A stretch of 64,000 nucleotides of DNA from a virus (IMGVR_UViG_3300023174_000089:50874-114873); one strand, 5' to 3'. Positions 4,710 through 11,212 are shown, numbered from the stretch's first letter. The notes: generated from the letters alone by a model not told the origin. Numbers and translations: made by a program.

Positions 4710-5020
4710 CCAGGTGATTCTGTTGCTAAGTTCACCTGGTGAAACTCCGCTTACCGTTTAGGCAGCAAGTGCAAACTTATTATCGTTAGCGTTTAATTTA
4801 ATTTGCTTCTTCGGCCGAGTATCTTCAACCCTAACGTCTTTAGCTTTGACGATTCTCCATTGTTCTAATTATTGCTATGTCGAATCTAGGCACCCCCATC
4901 AGAAGTATATTGCCACATTTGTGTTTGCTACCAAGAACCTGGTTCGTCAATATACTTTTGGTGGAGGTGGTGGGAATCGCACCCACGTCCACAACAACTT
5001 TGAAACAACTTCTACGAATT
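4710..5020 (-). ncRNA. ssrA: Circularly permuted (two-piece) tmRNA
   Basis: Acceptor piece ends ...CACCTCCACCA at 4959 and lies upstream of the coding piece starting GGGGGTG at 4897; acceptor stem has G3:U70; tag ANDNKFALAA* at 4790-4758; outer ends approximate. Confidence 0.92.
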
Positions 5021-5119
5021 TCCTAGAATTAATAATGTTGCCATAACTAAAGCAACACCACCAATCCAATAATTAAATCTATTTACTTTTTTTTGTTCTA
5101 CACAATCTTTACTAGGCAT
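5012..5119 (-). CDS. 35-aa small membrane protein
   Basis: MPSKDCVEQKKVNRFNYWIGGVALVMATLLILGNS*; TAATG coupling to the upstream ORF. Confidence 0.55.
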   Translation of the reverse strand: MPSKDCVEQKKVNRFNYWIGGVALVMATLLILGNS

Positions 5120-5247
5120 TACAGAATCCTTCCTAACAACCAAATGATAAAAAGAAAACTTAAACCACCAGCCAATACTTTTAGAGCCCCGATTTGTCTT
5201 GCGTTCTGCTCGGGAGTGCAGAGTTTTTTCCAATATTTGTTTTGCAT
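5119..5247 (-). CDS. 42-aa small membrane protein (not in ORF track)
   Basis: MQNKYWKKLCTPEQNARQIGALKVLAGGLSFLFIIWLLGRIL*; AGGA RBS; late-like TATAAGTA at 5271-5278. Confidence 0.6.
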   Translation of the reverse strand: MQNKYWKKLCTPEQNARQIGALKVLAGGLSFLFIIWLLGRIL

Positions 5248-5294
5248 AGTGTTCCTATTATAAGTGTTTATACTTATATAGGCAACCAGCTTAC

Positions 5295-5954
5295 TTAATA
5301 TTTACCACTTTTCTCATAATATGAAATGGCGTTGACTAGACCTGTGATGTGGTCCTCGGTCTTTTGTTTGAATACGATTGGATGGTTATTCTCAACGGCC
5401 ATAATGATTACTAGGTCGTGGATAGGTTCACCTATCAACTCCTCATACATCAACGCATAGGCGCTTGTTTGCCAAAAATAATCTTCAATATCTTCATGGC
5501 TTTTAACTTTTTTGGATGTTTTGAAATCAATTACCGAAAGCACACCATCAAATTCGGCAATACAATCTACACGACCTGCCATATTCAATTGTTTTGACCA
5601 AAGTGCCTGTTCTTGGTAATGAATGTTATTAATACGATTCAGGTGTGGTTTAATTGATAAGAACATTTCATGTGCATCAGGCATCACATTACCCAAATCT
5701 TCATTATTCAAATATCGTTCACATAGTGTATGAACATTTGTACCACGAGAAGTTGCTTTCTTGGTAATTGCATTAGCAACATCATCACCTACTTTATTAC
5801 GCCATGCTTGAAAGATGTGTTTCTTTTGAGCACCAATCACTGTAGTGACTGATGGTAATTTTGTACCATCAGGCAGTTTGTAGAATCGTCTACCATCAGG
5901 AAAAGTTTCTGATTGTAAATCTTGTAATTGTTTTGGTGGGCAGTAATTAAACAT
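5295..5954 (-). CDS. PD-(D/E)XK exonuclease (RecB/Cas4-like) of T4-like phages
   Basis: PSVTTV, RGT.VH, AGRVDCIA...VIDFKTS, Q..AY. Confidence 0.88.
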   Translation of the reverse strand: MFNYCPPKQLQDLQSETFPDGRRFYKLPDGTKLPSVTTVIGAQKKHIFQAWRNKVGDDVANAITKKATSRGTNVHTLCERYLNNEDLGNVMPDAHEMFLSIKPHLNRINNIHYQEQALWSKQLNMAGRVDCIAEFDGVLSVIDFKTSKKVKSHEDIEDYFWQTSAYALMYEELIGEPIHDLVIIMAVENNHPIVFKQKTEDHITGLVNAISYYEKSGKY

Positions 5955-6726
5955 TTTTTTTCGTCAAAAACTTTTCTTTTAATCTATCAAATAATGCTAT
6001 ATCTTCTGGTGTAAGAGTAACAGCATCTACATTTTTTCTATATTCTTTTGCTTGATTCTCAACTTGAAAGATATTCCCATAATATTTGAAATTTTTGGTG
6101 ATTTGCCTTGTGTCATAGGCATCCATAATTATATGATAACGATCTTCATCTGAATCATTTCTAATTTGGTGCCACAAATTCACCCACAGAATATAAACTG
6201 AACCATCAGCTGGCATATGTAGATTTTCACCTTGGCAGATATGCACACATTTCTTATTTGTAATTAATGGAATATGAATTCTTGCCATATAGTTATTTGT
6301 GTCTGAATCTTTATGAACCAAAGATTTTGAATGTGCCTGTAAACAAGATACCCTTGCTCGTCTAGGATAAAACCCTAATGATTCCAAATCATCCAACACT
6401 TCTTTAATATAACCAACACATCCTGCTGTTGGATTTTTATGTTCAAATCCTTCTGCGACATTCATATATTTCATGGCTTTATAATTATATTGGCCATTTG
6501 GAAAAAATACATCATTTGTTTCTTTATCATCAGAATGATAAACTTCCCAACCATCTCGCCAATCACCAGTTCTAGACAATAATGTCCAACCACCAAAGCC
6601 ATGGTATTCTAGTGTTTCAAATTCTTCACCTTGAATCTGTTGTTTACCAAGAGTGAATACATTATTCTCAACCTCTTTTCTCAATCGGTCGATATCAACT
6701 TTATAATCCAACTTTTCATACCACAT
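5947..6726 (-). CDS. Aspartyl/asparaginyl beta-hydroxylase-like 2OG-Fe(II) oxygenase (likely start MWYEK)
   Basis: HKD iron motif, RIHIPLITN, distal H in WHQIRN, R.H.I 2OG-binding strand. Confidence 0.8.
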   Translation of the reverse strand: MWYEKLDYKVDIDRLRKEVENNVFTLGKQQIQGEEFETLEYHGFGGWTLLSRTGDWRDGWEVYHSDDKETNDVFFPNGQYNYKAMKYMNVAEGFEHKNPTAGCVGYIKEVLDDLESLGFYPRRARVSCLQAHSKSLVHKDSDTNNYMARIHIPLITNKKCVHICQGENLHMPADGSVYILWVNLWHQIRNDSDEDRYHIIMDAYDTRQITKNFKYYGNIFQVENQAKEYRKNVDAVTLTPEDIALFDRLKEKFLTKKNV

Positions 6727-7289
6727 TATAAGTTTCCTGTTTCTTTTAAAATTTGACACACATCTTGATAATAATACTGTGTACCTAGAGTAATGGCAAG
6801 CCTTTCACTCAAAACATTATTTGGTTTTACTGCGTGTGGTCGTGTTACATCAAGTAACCACACTTCATTATCTTTTGCGATGAATGATTCTGTTTTTTCC
6901 AAATCGTCCTCTTGGTAGATAAATCCATTGGTTTGATTATCTATCTGATAGGTATTTGGTTGTTCATCTTTAAACTTATAAAACTGTGTTAAGCAATTTT
7001 CAGTTTTTATATAGAAGTTAATTGTTGAATTTATACCACTATCGGTGTGAGGAGGTATTGAATGGTTCACTTTCATTAAAGACATGAAGAAGTCTTTACG
7101 ACATCTTTCCGGCAAAACAGAATATATTTGTGGATGTAATAATGAATTCAAGTTTAAATATTGTATGCCTTTAAATTGGCCATCAATATTTACACCGTAA
7201 GATATTTGAACATCAAGTGGTTCATAACCAGGAACAATGAAATTGTTTTTTAATTTAACAAAACTACTTCTTTGATTTCCATTCTTCAT
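6726..7289 (-). CDS. Second 2OG-Fe(II) oxygenase-like (DSBH) protein
   Basis: IPPHTDS, INFY, WLLDVTRPHAV...R. Confidence 0.7.
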   Translation of the reverse strand: MKNGNQRSSFVKLKNNFIVPGYEPLDVQISYGVNIDGQFKGIQYLNLNSLLHPQIYSVLPERCRKDFFMSLMKVNHSIPPHTDSGINSTINFYIKTENCLTQFYKFKDEQPNTYQIDNQTNGFIYQEDDLEKTESFIAKDNEVWLLDVTRPHAVKPNNVLSERLAITLGTQYYYQDVCQILKETGNL

Positions 7290-7626
7290 ATTGTTTCACG
7301 ATTTGACATTCATAATCCCAATTAATACCTTCATGTGGATTATCCTTAGCGGCTTGCCAAGGTTTACCCAAAATATGTTCGAGAATAGGAATGCCAGGAT
7401 GTAATATTTTTTCTAATACATCAGCATAATCAGTAAACATTTGAAACAACCGCTCTTTATCGGGTTGTTGTAGATTTAAAATGTCGCTGTTCAATTGAGT
7501 ATCGAAATATTTTACGATATGTTTACGATATAACTCAATTTCTTCTTCTGTAACAATACCATCACGGTTGATGTCGGCGTCTGCTACACCATCGTTATTT
7601 AAATCAATATCTTTAATATCAGACAT
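7264..7626 (-). CDS. EF-hand-loop protein
   Basis: DLNNDGVAD and canonical 12-residue loop DINRDGIVTEEE. Confidence 0.6.
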   Translation of the reverse strand: MSDIKDIDLNNDGVADADINRDGIVTEEEIELYRKHIVKYFDTQLNSDILNLQQPDKERLFQMFTDYADVLEKILHPGIPILEHILGKPWQAAKDNPHEGINWDYECQIVKQYEEWKSKK

Positions 7627-8602
7627 TTTCTAATTTCCCCTGAAACAGTTTTTCTTTAAATTCTATTAATTTACTTAGATATAGAGCTGTGTAATAAGTA
7701 AAAAATACAAGAGCCCAAATTGTGTATACGGCCAAGACTTGTTGTTTTCTATTTGATTTTGGTTTTGGTGGTATATAACTGACCACTCTACAGATAACTG
7801 TACCAATTTTCATAATGATACGACCCATGGTGTTATCTTGTTTCAAAACACCCATCTTATAAGCCATATGTTCAGACCAAGGTGTTCCAATCTTAACAGC
7901 CATTTCAGTTGCAACAATCTTTTGTTCAATTTTACGGCGTGATTCTTTTTTGATCCAGAACATAAAATCTGGACCTTTAGCATTCATCCATGATGTAACG
8001 ATACGAGCCCAACGGATATAACCACGATAAACCCTCTTATCTGTTTTACGTAACATCTGGCCATATGCCTGATCAGCTGCCCATATTGTAGAACTCATTA
8101 GGCCTTTATCATACAAATCAGCACAAACGATCTTAGAACAGTTACATGCACAGTTACAATTAAATGTTGCTGAAGCTGCGGCGCCACAATTGTAGCCTAC
8201 AGTTGCATTACAGTTACAATTATATCCAGAAGAACAGTTACAATTGGCTTGAAGATACGATTGTGTATCACAGTTTGTGCAATTTATACCAGAACAATTT
8301 GTGCACTGAGATTCAAAGGCACCAAAAGGTAAACACTGCTGACATTGAATGTTTCCACAGTTACAGTTACAGTTTGTGCAATTTGTAGGAGGACAATTGG
8401 TATTTGAACAGTTACCATTATCACAGTTTCCGTCCATATTTCTCTGATAGTATGCTTTATCTTTAAAAGCATCCATGTTTGGACTGGCTGGAGGATTCTT
8501 TAAATAACCATTTAAAAACTGCAAAGATGCAGAATATGTTGCACCTAAACCTAGTTCGGTCGTTACATCAGATGTCGATATTTGGCCACTTGGTGTTGTC
8601 AT
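7619..8602 (-). CDS. Cys/Asn-repeat protein: virion-fibre-like N-terminus, 22-Cys core, C-terminal helical domain and TM segment
   Basis: MTTPSGQIS.SD..TELG start; aa 59-155 carry 18 NC, 3 QC and 1 AC; KIVC...GYIRWA domain; hydrophobic C-terminus. Confidence 0.75.
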   Translation of the reverse strand: MTTPSGQISTSDVTTELGLGATYSASLQFLNGYLKNPPASPNMDAFKDKAYYQRNMDGNCDNGNCSNTNCPPTNCTNCNCNCGNIQCQQCLPFGAFESQCTNCSGINCTNCDTQSYLQANCNCSSGYNCNCNATVGYNCGAAASATFNCNCACNCSKIVCADLYDKGLMSSTIWAADQAYGQMLRKTDKRVYRGYIRWARIVTSWMNAKGPDFMFWIKKESRRKIEQKIVATEMAVKIGTPWSEHMAYKMGVLKQDNTMGRIIMKIGTVICRVVSYIPPKPKSNRKQQVLAVYTIWALVFFTYYTALYLSKLIEFKEKLFQGKLENV

Positions 8603-8629
8603 TTTACTGTCCGTTACAATTTATTGTAG

Positions 8630-8637
8630 TATTTATG
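8630..8637 (-). promoter_or_regulatory. T4-type late promoter-like CATAAATA
   Basis: 7/8 match to TATAAATA about 28 nt upstream of the Cys-rich gene. Confidence 0.6.
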
Positions 8638-10078
8638 TTGTTTCCAACCGTGATTTTCCATATACTTCAATACCTTCTACCTGACCTATTTTTTCACTTA
8701 CGACCTTGATGGGTATAACCTTTTTCTTTGGTTCCTCTTTGTGTTCATAGATTGTACCAAAAATATCTTGGCGTTCTAGGGGTAGACCTTCCGCCTTAAT
8801 TAAAGTTGGAATGTAACCACCAGTAATTTTCTCAATGGCCAAGGCAAACAATGGTACATTATCTGAATATGAGTTTGCACAAGATATATCCCAAAACTTT
8901 TCATCTAGGAACATACAAGCACCTTTACATAGGTGTAAAACTGGACAACCGCTACATTCTTTACGATTACTCCAATGTGTAGAACTTTTGATTCGAACAT
9001 TATCAAAATCATCTAGTGTTCCACTATGGTGACTTTCACCATTTTTACCCATTTCTAAAGAACTTACGTTTTGACAGGTCATAACATTACCACGCAGGTC
9101 AACAGCAAGGGTGTGTTCATCATCCATGCCACACTTTTGACCTAAGAATTTAGAATTTGTGTGTGTTAATACTGAACCAATAAACCCATCGATTTTGGCC
9201 AACTGGCCAAAGAATCCTATTTTACCTTGTGTGGTGAATATATCAGCAAATGCTGTTCTACGATATTCAAAGTGTTCTTGTTTTGTTTGTAATGAATTAA
9301 CGATACCATCTTCATCATAAGCGTCAACAATACCACCTTCACCCAATACAACATTTGGATCACCGGTTAGTTTAACAAACCATTCATAAATTTCTTTACG
9401 TGATTTGTTTTTCGAATTCATCATTGGGTTGAAACTAAATGATTTACCCAATCTACTCATCATACGGTGAAATCCAAGAATTCTTTTCTTGGCTTCTGGA
9501 TCATCAAATGGATCTGGCCCACGAACTGATTGTCCTGGTCCATCATGTGATATTGATACGGAGAAATCCATCATCATCAACCAATCAATGATATCATCAG
9601 TTAGAATTGACCCGTTGGTAATGATAGAGAATTGTGGTTTTCTTTTCCAATCAGAAAACTTTTCTGCAATAGTTTCGGCCAAAGGTTTTAATGTTTTCCA
9701 ATATACAAGTGGTTCACCACCCCAAAACTCAACTCTTAAGCCAGACTGTTCATCAAATTCTAGTTTGTTAAATTTTTCCATAAAAGAATCGATATCTTTT
9801 TTGGATGTTTCTGGCATTCTTTCAACAAATTTCTGTGAACAATAATCGCAGGAGTAGTTACAACTCAAACCTAATTGAATTTTAATATGTTTAACTAATC
9901 TAGATTTTTTGAGTGGATTATTCTTGTCGAATGGGACATAAGGTTTTAAACCATGTGGTTGAATATTATTGTATTGTAATATGTTTCCATTTTCATCAGA
10001 CAATATGTTGGTCATATTATCATAATAAAAAATCCTCTTATCGTCTTTTGACTTCTCGGTGTGTATTTCAAATAACAT
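8633..10078 (-). CDS. Radical SAM/SPASM-domain maturase
   Basis: CNYSCDYC, FWGGEPL, ITNGS, SISHDG; SPASM cysteines KCG...GNVMTC...CSGC...LCKGAC...C. Confidence 0.93.
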   Translation of the reverse strand: MLFEIHTEKSKDDKRIFYYDNMTNILSDENGNILQYNNIQPHGLKPYVPFDKNNPLKKSRLVKHIKIQLGLSCNYSCDYCSQKFVERMPETSKKDIDSFMEKFNKLEFDEQSGLRVEFWGGEPLVYWKTLKPLAETIAEKFSDWKRKPQFSIITNGSILTDDIIDWLMMMDFSVSISHDGPGQSVRGPDPFDDPEAKKRILGFHRMMSRLGKSFSFNPMMNSKNKSRKEIYEWFVKLTGDPNVVLGEGGIVDAYDEDGIVNSLQTKQEHFEYRRTAFADIFTTQGKIGFFGQLAKIDGFIGSVLTHTNSKFLGQKCGMDDEHTLAVDLRGNVMTCQNVSSLEMGKNGESHHSGTLDDFDNVRIKSSTHWSNRKECSGCPVLHLCKGACMFLDEKFWDISCANSYSDNVPLFALAIEKITGGYIPTLIKAEGLPLERQDIFGTIYEHKEEPKKKVIPIKVVSEKIGQVEGIEVYGKSRLETT

Positions 10079-10334: not shown

Positions 10335-10610
10335 TTACCATTCTCTAGGCATCTTTGTTTTGTGACCGTGTTTAACAGTATTTTGTGGAACTTTTTCTTT
10401 GATACGACCAATAATCTCACGTTCAAATCTTGCATCAGGTTGACCAATACCTGGTACTGACATACGCATGCCGTCACCAAACATTGGTACATCTGTAATG
10501 TGTCGTTCTAAATGGGGATTATTTTGTTTGAAACCATCCAACTCCGATATCTTCATCGTGTGGGTTTCTATTTCGTTTGTTGTTTTATTTAAAAAATCAT
10601 AGGTTGGCAT
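10335..10610 (-). CDS. FmdB-like conserved T4-like phage protein
   Basis: MPTYDF...E....MKISE....K..NPHL pattern. Confidence 0.65.
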   Translation of the reverse strand: MPTYDFLNKTTNEIETHTMKISELDGFKQNNPHLERHITDVPMFGDGMRMSVPGIGQPDARFEREIIGRIKEKVPQNTVKHGHKTKMPREW

Positions 10611-11212
10611 TAACTATACTCATAGGAAAGTGATTCACGAACATTTTGTGACCACTCTTTCATAAAAGGTGGCACCTCTCTCTTATTTATCTTACCTTTC
10701 CATGACCACATTCTCTGTTTTTCCATGATATAGTAATTGCGATAAGACTTCAATGAATCACCTGGTACCTTACAAGCATCAGGCATGGCAGGTGTAGGAC
10801 CAGTAAAACTTACTGCCTTTGGTATGTTGTTTGGTAGATTCCAAAATAAAGCTTTGACCAAACCATCAGATTCACATTTGTGAACTTTACCATAACGATA
10901 GGTGTATTCTTTACATAACTCATTTAACAATTTGCTTAACCAAATGTAATTTGAATCTGATTGGCGGCACCATACGGCTGATGGATGATTTACATGAGTG
11001 GCTGAATAAAGAATCGTTTCTCTTTCATCAGGTAAAATCCAGCGTTTCACTTTACGACCAGTTTTCGATTCAGCAATGGTTTCTTTGCCGTCAATGATAC
11101 GGTGTGCCGTTGATAATAGTTGGCAATATTCTAGAATCATTTTTACAACGTGCTTATCAACATGATATTGAGCACATTTCACAGGATCATAATCAAGATA
11201 AAAAATATTCAT
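10610..11212 (-). CDS. Pyrimidine-dimer DNA glycosylase/endonuclease V-family protein
   Basis: MNIFYLD...DKHVVKMILE..QLLST, THVNHPSAVW, EYTYRYGKVH, AMPD. Confidence 0.75.
   Translation of the reverse strand: MNIFYLDYDPVKCAQYHVDKHVVKMILEYCQLLSTAHRIIDGKETIAESKTGRKVKRWILPDERETILYSATHVNHPSAVWCRQSDSNYIWLSKLLNELCKEYTYRYGKVHKCESDGLVKALFWNLPNNIPKAVSFTGPTPAMPDACKVPGDSLKSYRNYYIMEKQRMWSWKGKINKREVPPFMKEWSQNVRESLSYEYS

Follow-up and report, generated by a model that had tools for sequence, protein, structure and literature searches.

What acts on a viral protein in which almost every cysteine directly follows an asparagine? The question is raised by IMGVR_UViG_3300023174_000089:50874-114873, a stretch of 64,000 nucleotides (the window) that forms part of a 115-kb IMG/VR virus record, ~68% complete, with a phage gene content that includes ribonucleotide reductase, a DnaB-type helicase and other phage genes. 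No near-identical phage DNA was matched by megablast. On the minus strand of the window, a 327-aa protein (P0001) with an array of Asn-Cys (N-C) units is encoded by the second gene of a compact co-oriented block, which consists of genes for a radical S-adenosylmethionine (rSAM) enzyme with a SPASM domain (P0002), P0001, a 120-aa protein, a 187-aa protein and an AspH-like oxygenase. As argued below, the array is probably, though far from certainly, a client of the adjacent SPASM rSAM enzyme, and the modification would most likely be a thioether at the N-C units. The features at the centre of the argument are, in window coordinates:

8633-10078, minus strand: radical SAM/SPASM enzyme P0002, 481 aa (Pfam Radical_SAM, TIGR04085 and Cys motifs; present in 79 of 80 loci encoding the N-C family)
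7619-8602, minus strand: N-C protein P0001, 327 aa, with an N-terminal domain, the N-C array and a C-terminal helical module (from translation)
8138-8431, minus strand: N-C array, residues 58-155, presumed modification sites (Cys and Asn counts and the arrays of homologues; low AlphaFold2 (AF2) confidence)

Translation of 8138-8428 (minus strand) gave residues 59-155 of P0001, with 22 Cys and 22 Asn in 97 residues. The original prediction, made from the DNA alone, had reported Asn before 18 of these Cys, Gln before three and Ala before one, and our counts matched it exactly; the units NGNC, NTNC, NCNC, NIQC and [YF]NC that it had described as recurrent were all found. When residues 56-165 were shuffled 100,000 times with composition preserved, [N/Q]-C dipeptides numbered 5.9 on average (sd 1.9) and 15 at most, versus 21 observed. 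Chance or composition as the source of the pattern was ruled out by these shuffles, none of which reached the observed value, and by a zero background among ~3,700 other six-frame open reading frames (ORFs) in the survey described below. The Asn codons of the array are AAC and AAT, 11 each, and Tandem Repeats Finder detected only a single 18-nt tract. A DNA tandem repeat was ruled out on these two grounds, and the pattern is therefore selected at the protein level, as had been proposed.

P0001 showed no match in Pfam, PHROG or NCBIfam and no named look-alike in the ESM Atlas. Its homologues, at least 281 in an indexed search and 619 as representatives, are uncharacterised. In 121 homologous proteins with 2,288 clustered Cys, the preceding residue was N in 1,720 cases, A in 247, Q in 126 and D in 43. 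Position statistics were calculated from 117 distinct homologous arrays (1,870 Cys), to which the following values refer. At position -1, N accounted for 83%, A and Q for 7% each, and D and V for 2% each; the entropy at this position (0.94 bit) was the lowest, the other flanking positions showing 2.7-3.4 bits each. Position +1 was much less constrained (N 30%, T 20%, A 16%), and 67% of all array Asn stood directly before a Cys. The arrays contained 13-34 Cys, with units gained or lost blockwise, and some units had Ala, Gly or Cys at -1. The alignment of homologues, proposed earlier as a check, showed that N-C is conserved and that spacers and unit number vary.

The unit had originally been likened to NxxC, as processed by NxxcB. 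This did not hold: N at -3 occurred at 38% versus a background of 25% (Kullback-Leibler divergence (KL) 0.23), compared to 83% at -1 (KL 1.43). Cys residues lacking N at -1 did have N at -3 in 301 of 437 cases, but these were confined to a few inherited columns. The conserved unit is the adjacent dipeptide N-C rather than NxxC.

The rSAM enzyme is the constant partner of N-C runs. Among 80 viral loci encoding the N-C family, 79 have the rSAM gene, and the exception is a contig that starts inside the N-C gene. Wherever the contig reaches, the order rSAM, N-C protein, 120-aa protein (P3), 187-aa gene and AspH-like gene is kept in these loci, with differing outer flanks; the 120-aa protein was found in 67 (at a fixed position), the 187-aa protein in 72 and the AspH-like oxygenase in 69.

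Linkage was then examined in both directions. In a forward test, bacterial genomes were scanned with the rSAM alignment, which yielded 80 loci with 31-74% identity, mostly in prophage regions of Burkholderiales, Rhodospirillales and others. A run was defined as at least three consecutive [N/D/Q/A]-C dipeptides, and six-frame ORFs of at least 80 aa were considered. A run-bearing ORF on the same strand was present in each of the 35 bacterial or prophage loci that had an rSAM identity of 40% or more and 3 kb or more of upstream DNA; at 30-39% identity, this was true of 7 of 23. Run-bearing ORFs made up 48 of the 3,787 six-frame ORFs, and every one of them was a neighbour of the rSAM gene in the same orientation; 37 of the 46 located upstream had the run no more than 6 residues from the stop codon. 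In the reciprocal test, viral contigs were searched for NCNCNC[N/D]C. Where the match was in frame in an ORF of at least 80 aa, the rSAM clade was present in the fetched stretch in 43 of 56 cases, versus 2 of 24 for out-of-frame or low-complexity matches. The virus record containing the window showed no second N-C-run protein and no second rSAM of the P0002 clade. These results established that the N-C motif is tied in both directions to one SPASM rSAM clade and that the linkage is near-absolute. The array had been read originally as an iterated enzyme-recognition motif; the core of that proposal is strongly supported by comparative genomics, while its analogies to NxxC and to AspH (see below) fail.

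The forward test also revealed what kind of protein carries the runs. The clients are 130-630 aa long and are mostly tail fibres, most of them ending in the run; they showed tail-fibre PHROG matches (phrog_5073 at 1.4e-44, phrog_8443) and collagen-like repeats. Two cultured phages encode an rSAM homologue within a fibre cluster: in Achromobacter phage JWF, the Hint domain of gp028 is immediately preceded by 'NCNCDCNCNCSC', and in Ralstonia phage RSP15, the side tail fibre ORF048 ends with 'NTNCQCGN'. In 38 distinct fibre tips that were reached only via the rSAM enzyme, 363 Cys were counted, 237 of them after N, 43 after A and 30 after D; scattered Cys located 60-80 residues upstream of the terminal run also obey the rule. 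N stood before the first Cys of the cluster in 36 of the 38 tips; after the last Cys came the stop codon in 25 tips and a Hint domain in 6. It follows that the motif is (N-C)n, with N leading each pair.

P0001 itself is longer than its array. It can be divided further as follows:

8432-8602, minus strand: N-terminal domain, residues 1-57, which may serve in attachment or recognition (pLDDT, the predicted local distance difference test, 72-86; kept in short forms)
8240-8269, minus strand: conserved strand inside the array, residues 112-121, D.Q.[YW]LQ (pLDDT ~80; predicted to dock on the N-terminal domain)
7619-8137, minus strand: C-terminal 'KI[IV]C' helical module and terminal hydrophobic helix, residues 156-327 plus the stop codon (pLDDT 89-97)

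With an alignment of 136 sequences, AF2 modelled the N-terminal domain at pLDDT 72-86 and paired a strand inside the array (residues 116-119, pLDDT ~80) with strand 49-52 of that domain; L117 is nearly invariant and Q118 invariant among the homologues. The two N-C-rich stretches (residues 58-109 and 122-156) stayed at 31-42 even with 136 sequences, and no confident monomer fold was obtained for the array with either 32 or 136 sequences (pLDDT 25-42). In the C-terminal module, the top 19-residue Kyte-Doolittle window begins at residue 289.

Sister proteins share the N-terminal domain and the array and differ in what comes next: a stop codon right after the array, a Hint domain (P0217, 34.9 bits versus a cut-off of 32.1), Peptidase_S74 (27.6 bits in P0235 and 25.8 in P0270, cut-off 22) or another domain. 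The 'KI[IV]C' module of P0001 fills the slot held by Hint or Peptidase_S74 in these proteins, and the N-terminal domain is conserved in short forms without the C-terminal module. In a Polynucleobacter prophage (L088), a short form directly follows the long-tail-fibre distal subunit (phrog_11011, 3e-36), which may be the position of a tip adhesin or an assembly factor. Peptidase_S74 is a self-cleaving chaperone of trimeric fibres and spikes. The succession of array and self-cleaving Peptidase_S74 in sister proteins suggests a small, trimeric, fibre-type N-C protein in which the array forms the C-terminus after maturation.

A trimeric tip could, alternatively, use the array without any modification of it. 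The Cys/Asn ladder would then be structural, holding metal or disulfides, for example at the three-fold axis of the tip, and the rSAM enzyme would act elsewhere or the N-C units would serve as its docking tag. HxH repeats bind iron in T4 fibres. With x-C-x-C alternation, the thiols of a strand all point to the same side; the proteins partnered with the enzyme are trimeric fibres, and in P0235 and P0270 the array is followed by the Peptidase_S74 chaperone; AF2 monomer models usually render interdigitated trimers badly; and CrpA-type proteins have been discussed in relation to iron and sulfur (PMC13692751). However, such a ladder needs no rSAM enzyme, yet the linkage is near-absolute both ways, and a metal site would not require Asn at -1. 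Metallothioneins tolerate many residues before Cys and are typically rich in Lys and Ser, with few or no aromatics. The array composition (K 0.2%, R 0.2% and H 0.1%, with ~5% aromatics: Y 4.0%, W 0.8%, F 0.5%) argues against a classical metallothionein, the Cys parity is variable (75 arrays even, 42 odd), and 13-34 units fit iterated sites better than a docking tag. The metallothionein-like or disulfide-ladder alternative, already raised with the original prediction, is weakened by composition and parity; it is still a live rival, and we regard it as unlikely.

The C-terminal module is found well beyond this family. With an invariant Cys in its first turn, it forms the C-terminal end of over 200 further phage-like proteins (130-1,859 aa) without N-C repeats, where it comes after poly-Gly or poly-Pro linkers or even after a Hint domain ending in 'VHN' (P0151, P0153). 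The sole match to P0001 among 50,697 deposited phage genomes was gp028 of Synechococcus phage SynMITS9220M01 (L001:4669-6519), a 617-aa protein encoded beside fibre genes, in which the same module follows ~32 Pro and 8 Arg. Foldseek found nothing for the module in PDB, and BFVD gave homologues only, including a 'DUF4815' protein. An identity as an NEL E3-ligase domain was considered and not adopted: the best VIA-align rows (SlrP, Z 6.7; SspH1, Z 6.0) were under the bar of the tool for helical bundles.

The remaining genes of the block include a second candidate for the enzyme that reads the Asn residues:

7264-7626, minus strand: 120-aa protein (P3) with two DxNxDG loops, weakly EF-hand-like (EF-hand_1 E = 0.026, below cut-off)
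6726-7289, minus strand: 187-aa protein with HTD...PH, putatively a second oxygenase of the double-stranded beta-helix fold (motif in the translation)
5947-6759, minus strand: Asp/Asn beta-hydroxylase-family 2-oxoglutarate (2OG) oxygenase P0274, 270 aa (PF05118, 40.5 bits versus a cut-off of 22.6, E = 3.3e-10)

P0274 contains the iron triad HxD...H as H149-K-D151 with downstream His residues; the 187-aa protein gave no hidden Markov model (HMM) match. If the Asn preference served mainly the 2OG oxygenases, with beta-hydroxylation of Asn as in epidermal growth factor (EGF) domains, the rSAM enzyme would be secondary. P0274 does pass the PF05118 threshold, and three further 2OG types recur beside N-C-tailed fibres: phrog_81 (L090 and L113 types), PF13640 (L103 type) and the RSP15 ORF046 type. 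But 2OG oxygenases were detected in only 30 of the 48 run-positive loci and were not found, even by HMM, in the short-array loci L088 and L089 or in Hint-type loci, whereas the rSAM gene was always there; the oxygenase families vary between lineages, and the rSAM clade stays the same. No lineage that keeps the N-C grammar without the rSAM enzyme was seen in this analysis. The EGF hydroxylation consensus C-x-[DN]-x4-[FY]-x-C-x-C, which the original prediction had compared with NCSSGYNCNC, was exact in no more than 6 of the 117 arrays, with 18 showing its tail alone; the resemblance is therefore coincidental. The N-C grammar tracks the rSAM enzyme, and, being absent from the short-array and Hint-type loci, the oxygenases are accessories; that the Asn residues are there chiefly for them is very unlikely. 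In pairwise BLAST, the cassette oxygenases showed no significant similarity to RSP15 ORF046.

One apparent neighbour was discarded in the course of this comparison. The protein encoded at L103:5390-6001 is labelled 'DNA endonuclease V' by PHROG (phrog_274, 2e-16) but matches 2OG-FeII_Oxy_3 (PF13640) in Pfam (31.1 versus 27 bits), and the PHROG label looks misleading. An 'endonuclease V' shared by the L103 locus and the window as a neighbour of the rSAM gene was rejected, because the two proteins are unrelated, the one in the window being the product of a Pyr_excise-like gene at 10610-11212.

Profile matches and Cys motifs place P0002 in the radical SAM/SPASM superfamily. It scored 35.5 with Pfam Radical_SAM (PF04055; gathering cut-off 29.5) and 33.9 with the NCBIfam SPASM model TIGR04085 (cut-off 27). 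In an alignment of 7 sequences with 43-75% identity, the SAM-cluster motif C73x3C77x2C80 and the seven-Cys SPASM pattern C316-x13-G-x4-C335, C375xxC378x5C384x3C388, C400 were invariant, and only these seven conserved Cys were seen in the SPASM region. The best NCBIfam rows were maturases of Cys-rich clients, namely PapB, geopeptide, QhpD, CcpM, SCIFF and CefB: PapB (NF047865) gave 77.1 bits versus 340, with only residues 64-182 aligned, QhpD 70 and SCIFF 54. P0002 also aligned over its full length to the thioether synthase CteB. In a quick tree with midpoint root, the window-type enzymes formed one clade (support 100) inside a clade dominated by fibre-tail-associated enzymes (support 99), and the run-less enzymes of Bacteriovoracaceae formed a separate long branch.

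The same comparisons bear on another chemistry at Cys, in which the rSAM enzyme would oxidise C-beta to formylglycine or a thioaldehyde, as the anaerobic sulfatase-maturating enzyme (anSME) does, or would form a C-C or other cross-link, with Asn at -1 used for recognition only. The profile alignment of P0002 to anSME spans the core and the SPASM domain (query 72-390), the homologue of phage JWF is annotated as anSME, and the top PDB match of P0002 forms a C-C bond; moreover, the N-terminal extension of P0002 (~55 aa) is ~35 residues shorter than that of CteB (~90 aa) and may, as in anSME, lack a RiPP recognition element (RRE; RiPP, ribosomally synthesised and post-translationally modified peptide). 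Sulfatases, on the other hand, are constrained downstream of Cys, and the constraint here is upstream. TIGR03942, the model of anaerobic sulfatase maturases, gave 49.2 bits versus 349.45, below membership, and thioether maturases scored higher among the NCBIfam rows. The anSME client motif [CS]-x-[PA]-x-R occurred in 1 of 121 arrays, which makes chemistry of the anSME type less likely. Taken as a whole, a different reaction at Cys seems to us improbable.

Modification of the array by the SPASM rSAM enzyme encoded immediately upstream would proceed as follows. The array of P0001 would be an expanded version of the short (N-C)n tail found at the distal C-terminal end of tail-fibre-type proteins of phages and prophages. 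The enzyme would read the dipeptide N-C in that polarity, each Cys being immediately preceded by Asn or, less frequently, by Asp, Gln or Ala. The likeliest chemistry is one sulfur-to-carbon thioether per unit, as formed by ranthipeptide and protein-thioether maturases: a carbon of the adjacent residue, plausibly the beta-carbon of Asn as with NxxcB, would lose a hydrogen to the 5'-deoxyadenosyl radical, and the resulting carbon radical would be trapped by the Cys thiolate. The product would be a ladder of very small rings, or a set of inter-chain staples in a trimeric fibre tip, and might rigidify and protect the fibre end that contacts the host. The 2OG-Fe(II) oxygenases would contribute tailoring that is common but not required, perhaps the hydroxylation of Asn or Asp. 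Whatever domain follows the array probably either is cut off or assists assembly, so that the array ends up close to the C-terminus of the mature protein.

Several points weigh against this mechanism. A thioether between adjacent residues would close a seven-membered ring, and no precedent for this is known to us. The acceptors in CrpA, PapB, CteB and QhpC are downstream of Cys, which is the reverse of the N-C polarity. Units with Ala, Gly or Cys at -1 indicate that Asn is no obligatory acceptor at every Cys. Every NCBIfam equivalog score of P0002 is far under its cut-off, and its top PDB profile match is the cyclopropylglycine synthase 8VPO, so that homology does not fix the reaction. The low AF2 confidence of the array would also be expected from an interdigitated trimer or a metal-dependent fold. 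Finally, rSAM enzymes are oxygen-labile; the same cassette encodes oxygenases, which need oxygen, and the hosts seem to be aerobic bacteria of fresh water.

To our knowledge, virion proteins do not receive RiPP-type cross-links. Only tentatively, and with somewhat less than an even chance of being right, we propose that fibre tips and small tip proteins carry a ladder of thioethers installed by the rSAM enzyme at Asn-Cys dipeptides, as intra-chain rings or inter-chain staples. This would be a new chemotype and the first covalent modification of a virion protein made by an rSAM enzyme, a protein-scale RiPP-like (N-C)n code that hardens or tunes the fibre end.

Maturation of Cys-rich clients by SPASM rSAM enzymes is known; what is new here is the dipeptide code, the enzyme clade and virion fibre proteins as clients. 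A close parallel is CrpC, a SPASM rSAM enzyme of Methanococcus voltae, which installs short-range ranthionine cross-links on the repeat-rich, Cys-rich CrpA (PMC13692751, 2026). CrpC, with three [4Fe-4S] clusters, acts on a neighbouring repeat-rich protein and not on a short peptide, and CrpA, like P0001, has a conserved N-terminal part and C-terminal Cys repeats with a low-confidence predicted fold. P0002 falls outside the CrpC family, however (TIGR04463, 49.5 bits versus 525, below membership). In CrpA, the motifs read C-x-x-Q/D and the acceptor follows the Cys, whereas the N-C system constrains Asn at -1; CrpC has a predicted RRE, whereas P0002 has a short N-terminus; and CrpC and CrpA belong to an archaeal cell, their clients being no fibre proteins, whereas the N-C system is viral.

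In chemistry of the NxxcB type, the C-beta hydrogen of Asn is abstracted and the carbon is joined to a downstream Cys (PMC10989515). This streptococcal system (NxxcB/NxxcA, of the RaS-RiPP type, that is, RiPPs made by rSAM enzymes) resembles ours in pairing Asn with, and placing it upstream of, Cys and in employing a SPASM rSAM enzyme. It differs in the spacing, with N at -3 there and at -1 here (83% versus 38%), and in the client: NxxcA is a short peptide under quorum-sensing regulation with one NxxC, whereas the N-C clients are a 327-aa phage protein or many-unit tail fibres. No NxxcB model was among the 25 NCBIfam rows listed for P0002.

PapB/freyrasin, CteB/SCIFF and QhpD/QhpC are alike in providing the best NCBIfam rows and, with CteB, a full-length alignment. 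The substrates of these enzymes are repeated Cys motifs in which Asp, Glu or Thr is the acceptor, and QhpD acts on a protein subunit; but the scores of P0002 are far under the equivalog cut-offs, the acceptors lie 3-9 residues downstream of Cys, and none of the systems is viral or has an Asn-Cys dipeptide. Self-processing fibre ends offer a likeness of another kind, in that the N-C run directly precedes Peptidase_S74 (P0235, P0270) or Hint (P0217, JWF gp028, L140 type); cleavage of these domains is predicted to leave the run at the mature C-terminus. P0001 differs in having the uncharacterised helical 'KI[IV]C' module there, with putative cleavage only. The system also departs from a RiPP in the strict sense, with a short leader-core precursor and an RRE: the clients have 130-630 aa, the enzyme extension is ~55 aa, and only loci L147 and L160 encode peptides of 63-67 aa. 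No description of a system combining an Asn-Cys repeat, an rSAM enzyme and tail fibres was found in full-text searches of the literature. Beside tail-collar and collagen-like proteins, Iyer et al. (2010) described no more than beta-hydroxylases, and the 'rSAM maturase' that a cyanophage paper counts as an antibiotic gene is unrelated.

Should the N-C units prove to be modified, an iron-sulfur radical enzyme would be chemically editing the distal tip of a fibre or adhesin in hundreds of uncultured phages from freshwater and the sea. At least two cultured phages, RSP15 and JWF, would be included, which makes the question directly testable. Such a modification may explain the stability or receptor specificity of fibres. 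The combination of (N-C)n at a C-terminus with an rSAM enzyme of the P0002 clade provides a rule for genome mining, and the N-C array would offer a compact iterated substrate for studying multi-site SPASM processing of proteins.

Some further features of the run-bearing loci were recorded. In 30 of the 48 run-positive loci, the N-C-tailed fibre gene is directly followed by a gene for a ~275-aa protein without family match that ends in '...K.GF[KR].[FY]SG...' (for example L113:4611-5435, L002:3314-4129, which is RSP15 ORF047, and L103:2890-3708); this makes it another conserved component of the prophage-type module. The 63-67-aa peptides mentioned above (L147:1970-2158 and L160:7760-7960) end in 'ACACGGPCACGGPCY' or 'ACACACACGGPCY', alternating A-C tails; their genes adjoin distant members of the rSAM clade (32-33% identity), and they resemble classical RiPP precursors with an alternating-Cys core. 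In a metagenome-assembled genome of Rhodospirillaceae (L132), tandem rSAM/SPASM genes (4714-5802 and 5806-7212) lie downstream of one N-C/A-C-tailed fibre, and in Rhodospirillales prophages, a CDP-alcohol phosphatidyltransferase gene (L140:4395-5135; PF01066, 46 bits) is located between a Hint-type N-C/A-C fibre gene and the rSAM gene.

In the window, the rSAM stop codon and the start of the N-C gene are separated by a 30-nt gap (8603-8632, minus strand) in which CATAAATA and CAATAAAT occur; they differ from the T4-type late promoter TATAAATA by one mismatch. Overlaps of 8, 26 and 34 nt are found at the three gene junctions after this gap.

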